Source: an uncultured Candidatus Saccharibacteria bacterium (GTDB lineage Bacteria > Patescibacteriota > Minisyncoccia > Phycocordibacterales > UBA9973). From it: DNA of 64,000 bases. Both the position numbers and the translations under genes were made by a program. The notes under the pieces are model-generated. The model did not search any database. It saw only the letters and a program-made list of their open reading frames with translations, and was not told the origin of the DNA. The DNA lies in NCBI GenBank assembly GCA_964553015.1, contig CAZKJE010000001.1:94278-158277 (forward strand), given 5' to 3'. How positions within the stretch are numbered: position 1 is the stretch's first letter; every line of letters starts with the position of its first letter. Shown piece by piece: positions 58,318-62,394 of this stretch.

Positions 58318-60260
58318 GGCCTCCGGAGAAAAGTAAAAAAACTAGAATAATATTATGGTCAATATTTCCGATACTTGTGGGAATACTTTTTGCTTCTTCT
58401 TTGTTTTCTGTTCTCCATAAAGGAAACTCAATTCTAGCGAAAGAAAGCATTGCCAGAGTAGTACAGCTTATACCGTCGGAGACTGTAAAACCTAAATATT
58501 TTTATACGAACACTGACCTTGTGGGAGCGCCAAAAGTTTCTGCAAAATCGTACTTAGTGGGCGACATTAATACTGGAGAAGTTATCCTGTCAAAAGATCA
58601 GGAGAATATATTGCCGCTCGCCTCGGTTTCAAAATTAATGACCGCAGTCGTCGCCAGCGAAATTGCCAAGCCGGATGAAGTGGCTTTTGTGTCCAAGCGC
58701 GCCCTTCTTACCTACGGACAAAATGGCGAACTGCGCCTGAAAGAAAACATAAAAATCACGGATCTTTTATATCCCCTGCTTCTGGAATCTTCCAATGACG
58801 CCGCAGAAGTAATCGCTGAACATTTCGGGCGTGATAGTTTCATAAGAAAGATGAACGTAAAAGCCGAATCGCTTGGCATGGAGGGCACATACTATGAAGA
58901 CCCGAGCGGACTTTCTCCGAACAATAAATCCACTGCTTCTGATGTGTTCAAACTAACGGGACACATTGCCAAAGAGCATCCTGACATTCTAAAGATCACA
59001 ATAAAGAGAAGTTTTTCAAATAAAAAACACAACTGGTCCAACATCAGCCAATTCTTAGGAAAAGACGGCTACATAGGCGGTAAAAGCGGATATACGGATG
59101 CAGCTCGGCAGACTGTAGTGTCTCTTTTCTCTCTGCCTCTAGCTGAAAAAAGCGATCGCCCTGTAGCCATCACTCTCCTTTCCAGCAAAGACAGGAAAAA
59201 AGACGTAGAAAGTATCGTAAATTATCTCAAGAAAAATGTGTATTATGGCGGCGCGCTCGGAGCTGTCACGAATTGGGTAGAACAAAGAGTCGGCGTGCCG
59301 GACATCAGAGAACCAGATTTTGTGACTCTCGCCTTTGGGGGCGATATTATGCTTGATCGCGGAGTGCGAAATTCAGTTATAAAAAATTTCGGGAATGATT
59401 ATTCCGCGCTGTTTTCAAAGTCAAAAGAAATTTCAAGCATATTTAAAAATTCTGATATAGCGTTCGCGAACTTGGAAGGCCCCGTATCTGATCAGGGTGC
59501 CGATATGAGAAATTTATATTCTTTCAGAATGGATCCGAGCGTAGTTCCCACTCTGAAAGGCGCCGGCATAAGCATCCTGTCCCTGGCAAATAACCATGTC
59601 GGCGATTGGGGCCGGGCAGCATACATAGATACGCTCGCCCGCTTAAAAGAAAATGAAATTCTATACACTGGCGGCGGAAATACCAGAACTGAAGCTGAAA
59701 CTCCGGCAGTCATAGAAAAATATGGCATGAAAATCGGATTTTTGGCATTTTCTGATGTCGGTCCAAACTGGATGGGAGTTCAAAACGAAAATGCGGGTTT
59801 ACTTTTAGCGAGCGATCCGCGATTTGACGAAATAATTAAAAACGCTTCAAGTCAGGTGGATTATCTCGTAGTATCTTTTCACTTCGGAGACGAATATAAG
59901 ACAGTTCACAATACGCGACAGGAATATTTAGCGCATAAGGCTGTGGATAATGGAGCTAAGATAGTTGTGGGCGCTCATCCACACGTAGTTCAGGACACAG
60001 AAGTTTACAGCCCAAAAGGTTGCACTCAAAGTTCGTGCATGAGTTTCATAGCCTACTCGCTCGGAAATTTTGTCTTTGATCAGTCGTGGAGCAAGGAAAC
60101 CATGAAAGGCATGGTTCTCGAAATCAAATTAGGCAAAGACGGCTCCATGTCTGTGCGAAAAGATCCGACGCAGTTAAATTCCGTATTCCAGCTCGAAAAA
60201 ATAATCCAAGGCAAAGAAGAAAAAATAAAATTTCCAGAAGTAAAACCTACTTTGCGATAG
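58314..60260 (+). CDS. Fusion protein: N-terminal TM + D-alanyl-D-alanine carboxypeptidase (peptidase S11, PBP5/6-like) + C-terminal CapA/PGA_cap metallophosphatase-like domain
   Basis: S11 motifs SVSKLMT (SxxK), SSNDAA (SxN), KSGYT (KTG-like). C-terminal half: AFGGDIMLDRGV, ANLEGPVSD, SLANNHVGDWG, VSFHFGDEY, GAHPHVVQ, SLGNFVFDQ match the CapA/PGA_cap family. Confidence 0.7.
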   Translation: MRPPEKSKKTRIILWSIFPILVGILFASSLFSVLHKGNSILAKESIARVVQLIPSETVKPKYFYTNTDLVGAPKVSAKSYLVGDINTGEVILSKDQENILPLASVSKLMTAVVASEIAKPDEVAFVSKRALLTYGQNGELRLKENIKITDLLYPLLLESSNDAAEVIAEHFGRDSFIRKMNVKAESLGMEGTYYEDPSGLSPNNKSTASDVFKLTGHIAKEHPDILKITIKRSFSNKKHNWSNISQFLGKDGYIGGKSGYTDAARQTVVSLFSLPLAEKSDRPVAITLLSSKDRKKDVESIVNYLKKNVYYGGALGAVTNWVEQRVGVPDIREPDFVTLAFGGDIMLDRGVRNSVIKNFGNDYSALFSKSKEISSIFKNSDIAFANLEGPVSDQGADMRNLYSFRMDPSVVPTLKGAGISILSLANNHVGDWGRAAYIDTLARLKENEILYTGGGNTRTEAETPAVIEKYGMKIGFLAFSDVGPNWMGVQNENAGLLLASDPRFDEIIKNASSQVDYLVVSFHFGDEYKTVHNTRQEYLAHKAVDNGAKIVVGAHPHVVQDTEVYSPKGCTQSSCMSFIAYSLGNFVFDQSWSKETMKGMVLEIKLGKDGSMSVRKDPTQLNSVFQLEKIIQGKEEKIKFPEVKPTLR

Positions 60261-62394
60261 CTGTAGCTTCGTCGAATTTTACCGAGAGAAGTTTGGAGGC
60301 GCCGTCGGAACCGATGGTAACGCCGTACAGTACTCCGGCGCGGGACATGGTCTCGCGATTATGAGTGACGACAATAAGCTGGGAATGCTTGGAAAGTTTT
60401 TCGAGCATGTCTCCGTATTTGCGCGAATTTGCTTCATCGAGCGCCGCATCTGTCTCATCAAGCACTAAAAACGGCGGAGGATTTACTTGCGACATAGCAA
60501 AAAGAAGCGCAATAGACGTGAGCGATCTTTCTCCTCCGGAAAAAGCATGCAATTCTTTTACTTTCTTATGCGGCAAAGAAACGTTTATTTCTATGCCCTG
60601 TTCAAACACCAGCTCTTCTTCCAAATCTCTTTCTATGTCTCCTTCCAGTTCTTCCGGAATATTTTTTTTCTTTTTATTTTCTACTACGATATTAAGCGAT
60701 CCGTGTCCTCCGCCAAACATCAGCGAGAAAAACTCCTGAAATTCCACGTTGATTTTCTTCACTCCTTCTTTGAATTCTATGTCTATTTTTTCTTTGAGAT
60801 CAGTGATAAGTTTTTGGAGAGATTCAATGCTTTTTTCAAGATCCTCAAGCTCTTTTGCTAAAAACTGATCGCGCTGCGACACCATGTTGTATTCGTTCAT
60901 TAGCTCGGCGCTATTACCAAGGCCTGCATCTTCAAGTTTTATCTTTATGCGCTCTATTTTTTTCTTTAATTCATCTTGCGAAACCCCTGTATTGAGTTCC
61001 GCCTCCTCGGCGGATCGCCGCTCTCCCGATTTATACACCAAAATTTCTGCGCCGATGAGTACCGTGCCTTCGTTTATTTCGTTATCAAACATTTCGCTGC
61101 GATTTCTTAAGTTGCCTTCTTTGATAGCAATCAATTCGAGCGCACTCGAAAGCTCCTGATGGCGCACTTTAAAAGTGAATTTCTCGCGTTCCAAATCACG
61201 TAAAGCCTCCATTTCACTGTTTATTTCCTGTTTCAGCTTTTCAACTATTGTTGCTAATTCTTTCTCTTCTAGTTCTATTTTTTTTATTTCAGACAGAGTG
61301 TTTGCCTGAGAAGTTTTGAGTTCAGCCAGTTCTTTTTCTTCGTTGTGTTTTTGCTCCACCTGTTCTGCATTTTTTTCGCTTATGTCGCTACCGCAAAGCG
61401 GACATTTGCCCGAAACTTTAATCTTATCAACTCTCGCTTCCAGAATACCTTCTATGCGCCCGAGCTTGCGCTCCAGCTCCCCTTTCGTACTGCGAAGGAC
61501 ATTTATCTTTTGCTCAACAGATCTCAACTCTTCGATTTTTTTATTACCCGCCGTGTTTGCGGTGTCTTCGGTCGCAGAAATTTTTTTATTTATTTCTTTT
61601 AATTCCTCGCTCAATTTCGCTCTTTCAGTATGTAAATTTGTTTTTTCTTTTTCTAAATAAATACTTTCATTGGAGAGATACACTTTATAAAGATTTGAGA
61701 GTTCCGCCTGCATTTCCTTGGCTTTCTCAAACCTTTCTACTTGCTTTTTGAGAAAGTTAAGGTGCGGAGCATTTTCACGGCGAAGCATGGTGACTTCTTT
61801 CATGTTCTCGTTTGTTTTTTCGAGCTTCCTCTCGGACTCCTTTATCTTATACTGATAAATTTTAAGTCCGAGTGCGTCTTCCACCATTTCCTTCCTGTCA
61901 CGAGCAGAAGCATTCAATATCCTGTCCGCTTCGCCTTGAGATATGATGTGGTGCCCGCTCGAGCCTATATTAACTGAAGCCAAAAGATTGTGTATGTCTT
62001 TCAGGCGCACTTCTGTGCCGTTTAAAATATATTTATTTAGGCCGTCTGAATAAACTTCGCGTGAGATTGAAATAACATCGTAATTAAGATTTATATTTTC
62101 TCCGCCGTCGTTCGTAAGCTTGAAAATTTTATCCGTGTTATTAAAAAAAATAGTTACTGATGCCTTGGTGCCTTTTGATAAATTTTTAGAGCCCTTAAAA
62201 ACCAAATCAGATCCCCCTTTTCCTCGCATGGATTTCATAGACTGCTCTCCCAGTACAAAGCGTATAGCTTCCACCACGTTTGATTTTCCAGATCCGTTCG
62301 GACCGACGATGGAAACGATCGGGCTTTCAAATTCTAAAGCAGTTTTTTGAGCAAAAGATTTAAAGCCATTTAATTGAAGTGTCTTGAGTCGCAT
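60247..62394 (-). CDS. Compact SMC-like ABC ATPase (715 aa) with CxxC zinc-hook-like motif in the coiled coil
   Basis: N-terminus MRLKTLQLNGFKSFAQKTALEFESPIVSIVGPNGSGKSNVVEAIRFVLGEQS (SMC Walker A). C-terminal signature FSGGERSLTSIALLFAM and D-loop LVLDETDAALD (SMC-type, not the Rad50 DEPT type). Mid-coil KVSGKCPLCGSDIS (C-P-x-C-G). Sits in the conserved rnc-smc position. Confidence 0.65.
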   Translation of the reverse strand: MRLKTLQLNGFKSFAQKTALEFESPIVSIVGPNGSGKSNVVEAIRFVLGEQSMKSMRGKGGSDLVFKGSKNLSKGTKASVTIFFNNTDKIFKLTNDGGENINLNYDVISISREVYSDGLNKYILNGTEVRLKDIHNLLASVNIGSSGHHIISQGEADRILNASARDRKEMVEDALGLKIYQYKIKESERKLEKTNENMKEVTMLRRENAPHLNFLKKQVERFEKAKEMQAELSNLYKVYLSNESIYLEKEKTNLHTERAKLSEELKEINKKISATEDTANTAGNKKIEELRSVEQKINVLRSTKGELERKLGRIEGILEARVDKIKVSGKCPLCGSDISEKNAEQVEQKHNEEKELAELKTSQANTLSEIKKIELEEKELATIVEKLKQEINSEMEALRDLEREKFTFKVRHQELSSALELIAIKEGNLRNRSEMFDNEINEGTVLIGAEILVYKSGERRSAEEAELNTGVSQDELKKKIERIKIKLEDAGLGNSAELMNEYNMVSQRDQFLAKELEDLEKSIESLQKLITDLKEKIDIEFKEGVKKINVEFQEFFSLMFGGGHGSLNIVVENKKKKNIPEELEGDIERDLEEELVFEQGIEINVSLPHKKVKELHAFSGGERSLTSIALLFAMSQVNPPPFLVLDETDAALDEANSRKYGDMLEKLSKHSQLIVVTHNRETMSRAGVLYGVTIGSDGASKLLSVKFDEATAIAK

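Follow-up and report, generated by a model that had tools for sequence, protein, structure and literature searches.

We describe here the smc locus of an uncultured patescibacterium (deposited as Candidatus Saccharibacteria; GTDB lineage Patescibacteriota, Minisyncoccia, Phycocordibacterales, UBA9973) in a stretch of 64,000 nucleotides (nt) of contig CAZKJE010000001.1 (assembly GCA_964553015.1, positions 94,278 to 158,277), which we call the window and whose coordinates are used throughout. The gene at this locus encodes an SMC protein of 715 amino acids (aa) that lacks a hinge domain and carries, at the tip of its coiled coil, the cysteine motif CPLCG. In total, the observations outlined below make it probable that this is a miniaturized housekeeping SMC, that is, the condensin ATPase of Paceibacteria/Nomurabacteria-type Patescibacteria, bridged by zinc between its protomers. 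The parts of the gene are as follows, with helices taken from an AlphaFold2 (AF2) model of the protein.

60247..62394, minus strand: short hinge-less SMC gene, complete; intact open reading frame (ORF) of 715 aa plus stop, ATG start
61864..62394, minus strand: ATPase head, N-terminal half (aa 1-177), with Walker A, the conserved SMRG arginine R57, and the Q-loop; residues 2-209 align to residues 2-199 of Bacillus subtilis Smc
61420..61863, minus strand: ascending coiled-coil arm (aa 178-325), AF2 helices 178-276 and 282-325 with a short break at 277-281
61363..61419, minus strand: apex loop (aa 326-344) with CPLCG, the sole turn between the arms (AF2)
61324..61437, minus strand: putative exchangeable apex cassette (about aa 320-357); sister lineages have instead a Cys-free two-helix module about 34 aa longer
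60715..61362, minus strand: descending arm (aa 345-560), AF2 helices 345-447, 473-490, and 495-560
60250..60714, minus strand: C-terminal half of the head (aa 561-715), with the signature SGGERS, Walker B, D-loop, H-loop, and C-terminal cap

An earlier reading of the DNA made without database searches (below, the sequence-only reading) had drawn attention to this 715-aa ORF and its head motifs, and all of them are present and intact. Mapped back to window coordinates, they are the Walker A motif GPNGSGKSN (aa 31-39, nt 62278-62304), the Q-loop ISQGE (aa 151-155), the signature SGGERS (aa 619-624, nt 60523-60540), the Walker B/D-loop FLVLDETDAALD (aa 642-653, nt 60436-60471), and the H-loop VVTHN (aa 675-679), with CPLCG at aa 331-335 (nt 61390-61404). 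The ABC head is thus of the Smc type with all catalytic motifs. Pfam SMC_N matches residues 3-700 at 2e-54, and the NCBIfam model of prokaryotic Smc, TIGR02168 (SMC_prok_B), gives 507 bits (cut-off, 567), compared with 41-70 bits for the Rad50 equivalog models (cut-offs, 700-1087), 47 and 50 bits for the RecN models TIGR00634 and NF008121 (cut-offs, 408 and 418), and 59 bits for the archaeal ASRP model NF045487 (cut-off, 300). The comparison of SMC with Rad50 profile models proposed in the sequence-only reading therefore comes out clearly on the side of Smc, with a weak match to Rad50_zn_hook; SbcC_Walker_B also matches weakly (Pfam, E=0.034). Among PDB sequences, the top matches are the Smc heads of B. 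subtilis and Geobacillus (1e-76 to 1e-64, B. subtilis being the best at 1e-76), and Rad50 heads follow at 7e-11 or weaker. Residues 597-710 match the B. subtilis Smc head (1e-28 over this segment) and residues 463-570 the coiled coil near the head of B. subtilis Smc in 5xg3, and the neck (RKEMVEDALGLKIYQYK...) and the C-terminal cap are collinear with B. subtilis Smc and nearly invariant across the family. A Foldseek search with the AF2 model of a family member of the non-hook type described below (P0104; predicted local distance difference test [pLDDT], 83) returned the prokaryotic Smc head-plus-joint structures 5xei and 5xns first, with 5h68 and 5xg3 in the top 8.

What, then, stands at the far end of the arms? 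The AF2 model of the window protein is moderate (pLDDT 70, from a shallow alignment), and its coiled coil is confident: helices run up from residue 178 to 325 and down from 345 to 560 as one long antiparallel coiled coil, and its only turn, at 326-344, leaves just 19 residues between the two arms. Pfam gives no match to SMC_hinge (PF06470) in the 715-aa protein even at E<=1. Because that single turn holds CPLC, the CxxC lies at the coiled-coil apex, and the sequence-only proposal that CPLCG occupies the midpoint of the coiled coil instead of a hinge held up when the apex was located in the model. The arms, about 150 aa (ascending) and 200 aa (descending), are about half the canonical length, and the span estimated from helix length is about 22 nm versus about 47 nm for the canonical arm; with head boundaries transferred from B. 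subtilis Smc, the arm length is estimated at 165-178 aa. The descending arm has a variable nonhelical insertion at about 448-472, and its break at 491-494 is the joint region.

The apex itself resembles a Rad50 hook. The whole protein has exactly two cysteines, both within CPLC; by our own estimate, two random positions would fall as a CxxC within the 19-aa apex loop with a chance of about 6e-5. C331, P332, C334, and G335 are invariant among 118 aligned homologs (74-100% identity), and CP[LTVM]CG is kept in 118 of the 120 closest homologs. A profile of the 74 residues around the motif has as its best PDB match the Pyrococcus furiosus Rad50 zinc hook 1L8D (E=5e-4), in an alignment that covers 52 positions with G+CP+CG+e+ at its center, and the motif with its flanks, SG[KR]CPxCG[SRK][ED][IL], is a close match to the GKCPVCGREL of the P. 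furiosus hook. Rad50_zn_hook (PF04423) is the top Pfam family for the excised apex (E=3e-4) and matches the full protein weakly, at residues 322-356. Neither the protein nor the alignment has an additional Cys or a conserved His near CPLC, and one chain, with its two cysteines, cannot by itself form a zinc site; thus, the economical reading is an inter-protomer Cys4 zinc site as in Rad50.

The window protein is no one-off hybrid. Short, hinge-less SMCs of 660-800 aa are a large family of the Paceibacteria/Nomurabacteria: when 1.84 billion cluster representatives were searched and the best 150 at 50% clustering were taken, all were 445-797 aa long and 145 of them fell within 660-800 aa, and the species genomes of GTDB gave more than 586 confirmed matches. 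These copies, all in the same length class, rule out an assembly artifact or a truncated gene. Eighty loci from 80 different assemblies (L001-L080) were kept for closer comparison, each genome with one copy of the short SMC, and 76 of them enter the counts of neighborhoods and apices given below. Their labels are almost all Nomurabacteria, Paceibacterota, Minisyncoccia, or Patescibacteria; the many titles reading “uncultured Candidatus Saccharibacteria” among the same loci may be generic labels. One locus (L050, on the 276,871-bp contig JAMPXW010000001.1) is titled “Burkholderiales bacterium” and carries a short SMC of the Paceibacteria type, with 64% identity in the best tblastn segment; this contig is probably mislabeled or mis-binned. 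Public records name the homologs “AAA family ATPase,” “chromosome segregation protein,” or “Chromosome partition protein Smc.”

Two kinds of apex occur in this family. Among the 76 species-level relatives, 37 have CP[LTVM]C and 39 do not, and among the 150 more distant representatives a mid-protein CxxC is found in 6, the remainder having a Cys-free apex. Hook proteins have 87 aa between the conserved anchors GRIEG and RDLER and non-hook proteins 121 aa, and the cassettes measure about 36 aa (zinc hook) and about 70 aa (Cys-free, two-helix). In the AF2 model of the non-hook P0104, the arms comprise residues 178-326 and 387-591, with short helices at 336-354 and 359-374 filling the apex, and the arms end at the same places as in the hook-bearing window protein. 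The Cys-free apex has a conserved hydrophobic pattern of its own, …EISQEE[IV]K.I…N.SI[DE].A…KE…EI[KR]P[IV]LE[RS]IKNILKKF, with two short helices predicted; it is borne by P0104, P0105, L012, L029, L033, L037, and L039, among others.

On neighbor-joining trees built from 607 non-apex columns of the 76 species, the minimum number of changes between hook and non-hook is 11 (range, 8-13 over 40 bootstrap replicates). The closest relatives outside the apex often have opposite apices: with N for non-hook and H for hook, non-apex identity is 89% for L029(N) and L007(H), 87% for L039(N) and L034(H), 86% for L012(N) and the window protein (H), 80% for L040(N) and L028(H), and 78% for L058(H) and L045(N), and these pairings are supported by both halves of the protein. 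With hook and non-hook forms interleaved in this way among the closest relatives, the apex acts like a cassette that can be exchanged. Hook cassettes are mutually alignable (median pairwise identity, 56%), and non-hook cassettes are so more loosely (35%), the latter figure coming from only 15 cassettes because of a poor anchor pattern and showing just that crown non-hook cassettes resemble each other. Alignability within each type makes an independent origin of every copy unlikely and points to recombinational exchange. That cassettes were swapped repeatedly while heads and arms stayed collinear suggests that the core SMC activity needs a dimerizing apex and not a particular fold. In distant members, the CxxC types CIYC, CRTC, CRYC, CAAC, and CGYC do not match the Rad50 hook model, which suggests that cysteine apices arose more than once; the CPVCGQ form of Vogelbacteria does match it. 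We speculate further, as a tentative proposal that we would not call likely, that across a broad radiation of ultrasmall bacteria the sole SMC has lost its hinge and that its apex has turned into a freely exchangeable dimerization cassette (zinc hook or two-helix module), reshuffled among lineages by recombination and kept as a long-lived polymorphism, perhaps selected by metal availability or by apex-targeting factors, with CxxC apices having arisen more than once.

The sequence-only reading had also placed the gene at the canonical rnc-smc locus, and the neighborhood bears this out. Upstream of smc lie the following genes.

62409..63104, minus strand: RNase III gene (rnc), directly upstream of smc; Pfam Ribonucleas_3_3, Ribonuclease_3, and dsrm
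63109..64000, minus strand: NusB-NUDIX fusion gene, upstream of rnc; Pfam NusB and NUDIX; frame open to the window edge

The rnc and smc genes are co-directional and 14 nt apart, with rnc at position -1 in 61 and nusB at position -2 in 59 of the 76 related loci, and in about 60 of the 76 species the genes run thrS / nusB-NUDIX / rnc / smc, a vertically kept housekeeping context and not an island. Throughout the lineage, the nusB gene upstream of rnc-smc keeps this fusion, with the NUDIX hydrolase domain at the C terminus of the protein. The gene downstream of smc varies among the 76 loci. In the window it lies on the plus strand at 58314-60260, and its 648-aa product joins a D-Ala-D-Ala carboxypeptidase (Peptidase_S11) to a CapA-like PGA_cap domain; this gene is convergent with smc, the two 3' ends overlapping by 14 nt, and many relatives retain it downstream of smc (cluster 3). 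Across the 76 loci, neither a kleisin-like gene nor a nuclease gene (Mre11/SbcD) is a conserved neighbor of smc, and LmuA/LmuC, JetABD, or other effector genes are missing from its neighborhood.

How might such a protein work as a condensin? We posit that a single tetrahedral Zn2+ would be bound by four cysteines, two from each of two protomers, in the manner of Rad50/SbcC, and that the zinc-bridged, constitutive apex dimer would take over the dimerization job of the hinge. The two heads would engage and disengage in an ATP-driven manner, the kleisin ScpA together with ScpB would probably bridge them, and the complex would act on chromosomal DNA as Smc-ScpAB does. Several published observations bear on this model. 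In a survey of 2321 genomes from the Candidate Phyla Radiation (CPR), SMC was found in 1016, ScpA in 1010, and ScpB in 1006 (PMC6744442, Supplementary Data 1), near-equal totals that fit a retention of Smc-ScpAB; the CPR SMC family is listed there at a length of 755 aa, with SMC_N as the only annotation on 90% of its members, and SbcC, SbcD, Rad50, and MukB are absent from the CPR protein-family table of the same study. B. subtilis grows normally with an Smc in which the P. furiosus Rad50 zinc hook stands in for the hinge (PMC5344682), and hook and hinge are interchangeable in Rad50 (PMC6969161). Shortened Smc arms are functional only at discrete lengths, and natural arm lengths have modes at 238, 341, and 515 aa with a possible minor mode at 163 aa (PMC5344682); it is suggestive that our estimate of 165-178 aa, which depends on the head boundaries chosen, is near that minor mode.

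Several points weigh against a zinc-bridged Smc-ScpAB condensin. The TIGR02168 score is under the trusted cut-off, though this is expected of a protein that lacks half the arm and about 170 residues of hinge. The PF04423 score is 15-21 bits versus a gathering score of 24.3, the AF2 monomer has a pLDDT of <50 at the hook, and we infer the inter-protomer zinc hook, and with it the apex dimerization, from the motif alone. Neither ScpA nor ScpB is found among 30 ORFs of the window that were scanned with Pfam (the three ORFs with no Pfam match, read by eye, have the look of membrane or secreted proteins and not of kleisins) or within 10 kb of smc in the 76 related loci. A phmmer search of six-frame ORFs from the window and the 80 loci with unverified B. 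subtilis ScpA and ScpB sequences as seeds also gave no match, a weak test that covers only 1.4 Mb of smc-flanking DNA; nor did the open-access literature searched hold anything relevant on ScpA in Patescibacteria. The CPR counts of SMC, ScpA, and ScpB are totals and not per-genome co-occurrence. Finally, the number of apex switches comes from neighbor joining and not from maximum likelihood or formal recombination tests.

Among known systems, the Smc of Smc-ScpAB condensin (B. subtilis Smc; TIGR02168, K03529) has in common with the window protein the sequence and fold of the head, the neck and cap, the full set of ATPase motifs, a coiled coil that is intramolecular and antiparallel and breaks at a joint-like point, and a gene located after rnc. 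The window protein differs in having no hinge, arms of about half the length, and an apex that is a CxxC loop (in relatives, a two-helix module). The engineered B. subtilis proteins Smc(Zh) and Mini-Smc (Burmann et al. 2017, PMC5344682) follow the same plan, in that a zinc hook of the Rad50 type closes off the head and arm of an Smc; however, these are laboratory chimeras with a P. furiosus hook, whereas the window gene is natural and conserved, with arms that are even shorter. The archaeal ClsN (coalescin), Sph, and ASRP proteins (PMC9389158) are also short (about 600 aa), SMC-related, and equipped with a zinc hook in place of the hinge, and ClsN acts in chromosome organization (PMC9389158), but they are archaeal and form a clade apart from SMC. 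An identity with ASRP is ruled out by the NF045487 score given above and by the bacterial host (Paceibacteria). A “hinge-less” SMC clade from ocean metagenomes, without a CxxC, has been called new biology (Sussfeld et al. 2025, PMC12153180). Those Actinobacteria-like proteins likewise combine true SMC-type heads and a coiled coil with the lack of a hinge; they are affiliated with Actinomycetes and reported to lack a CxxC.

Does the CxxC need to be an inter-protomer hook at all? A partner protein might supply the other two ligands, or the motif might be a redox or structural element, with dimerization taking place elsewhere or via the heads only. Zinc binding is indeed only predicted, with low model confidence at the hook, most of the family works without an apex cysteine, and at least four of the five CxxC types other than CPVC in distant members do not match the Rad50 hook model. 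We nonetheless hold this explanation to be unlikely: two cysteines per chain are insufficient for a four-ligand site and have no other Cys or conserved His nearby, the motif and its flanks closely resemble the P. furiosus hook, and the CxxC is exactly at the coiled-coil turn, the position of the hook in Rad50, ClsN, and LmuB. It is more improbable still that the short SMC serves mainly in DNA repair and the tethering of sister DNA, in the place of RecN and not as a loop-extruding condensin. In its favor, RecN is nearly absent from CPR (6 of the 2321 genomes; PMC6744442), the size, short arms, and missing hinge are reminiscent of RecN and Rad50, and two complexes could be tethered through a hook, a role that has been suggested for Rad50. 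However, head, neck, and cap are Smc-type, the gene is in the smc position after rnc, and in CPR genomes ScpA and ScpB occur as often as SMC; RecN identity itself is ruled out by 47-50 bits versus cut-offs near 410.

The sequence-only reading had left a choice between an unusual condensin variant and a repurposed SbcC. The former is supported by the Smc head, the missing hinge, the apex CxxC, and the rnc-smc position. The latter, an SbcC/Rad50 ortholog whose head merely resembles that of SMC, is effectively refuted, and we give it very little credence: the hook, the SbcC_Walker_B match, and the weak Rad50_zn_hook matches speak for it, and the CPxCG at the apex of an antiparallel coiled coil is indeed shared with the Rad50/SbcC hook (PF04423; 1L8D), but the Rad50/SbcC and RecN models score, in round terms, 47-70 bits against cut-offs of 400-1000, and an SbcC/Rad50 ortholog is ruled out by this gap to the Smc score and by the PDB matches, with Rad50 heads at 7e-11 or weaker and the best Smc head at 1e-76. 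The head is not of the Rad50 type, the hook is under the Pfam gathering threshold, and neither the window nor the 76 loci have an Mre11/SbcD-like nuclease gene adjacent to smc as a conserved neighbor. A role as an SMC-like defense sensor of the kind of Lamassu LmuB, MADS mad3, or Wadjet JetC has next to no probability. PADLOC models do give matches, partial or weak (mad3, 195 bits; LmuB, 103 bits over the full length), and LmuB, an SMC-like ATPase too, combines short, folded arms with a zinc hook that is functional. These scores are far under the Smc score, however, and rule out a defense ATPase; LmuB is a defense component that works with LmuA and LmuC, and here the neighborhood is one of conserved housekeeping genes without effectors, the gene is single copy in each of the 80 related genomes sampled, and no patchy, island-like distribution is seen. 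We thus retain the miniaturized housekeeping SMC with a zinc-bridged apex as the probable reading.

Elsewhere in the window, other features were noted. A PaaX-like protein with a PaaX_M domain is encoded at 27612-28211 (minus strand); a family annotated as phenylacetic acid operon regulator, to which this ORF might belong, is listed as CPR-enriched (1147 CPR versus 11 non-CPR genomes; PMC6744442). Between rpsP and the RNase R gene lies a GC-rich island (55725-56175; 57-63% GC in surroundings of about 40%) that is possibly foreign DNA and matches nothing in Rfam; it contains a 139-aa ORF (55769..56188, minus strand) with a lipoprotein-type signal (…LVTGC…). A second GC-rich stretch, the gap at 54480-54890 (minus strand) between the KH-domain gene and trmD, occupies the usual rimM site. 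It folds far better than shuffled sequence (z = -4.8), with terminator-like hairpins, matches no Rfam family, and has a small ORF for a one-helix membrane protein with AAGGAGG ahead of it. Two very large ORFs on the minus strand look like surface or attachment proteins: one of 1402 aa (18910-23118) with a Peptidase_S74 intramolecular-chaperone domain, as in phage tail fibers, and one of 1295 aa (6009-9896) with YDG, Ig-like, and peptidoglycan-binding domains. An IS200-like Y1 transposase ORF (Pfam Y1_Tnp, 1.4e-8) lies at 42617-43297 on the plus strand, and a similar ORF family (cluster 15) recurs in several related loci.

To our knowledge, a hook on a genuine bacterial Smc is known only as an engineered chimera, and the SMC of the window appears to be a natural version of what has so far only been built in the laboratory. 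Open-access papers and bioRxiv (subscription journals being outside this coverage) hold no description of a natural bacterial zinc-hook SMC or of a short SMC family in Patescibacteria. The role of the SMC hinge beyond dimerization is debated; DNA binding, a gate for DNA or obstacles, and loop extrusion have been proposed. Evolution appears to have run the hinge-to-hook swap in the conserved smc gene of a whole lineage, toggling between a hook and a helical apex. The family would offer a compact minimal SMC of about 715 aa and 22 nm for structural, single-molecule, and mechanistic work, and the annotation of short SMCs that are now called “AAA family ATPase” or that fail the SMC equivalog cut-off could be corrected. 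Should this protein prove to be the only SMC and to act together with ScpAB, the organization of the bacterial chromosome in these cells would be able to do without the functions specific to the hinge. And if the apex is indeed an exchangeable cassette, nature would have shown in this family that an SMC can function without the hinge fold and without contacts between hinge and DNA.

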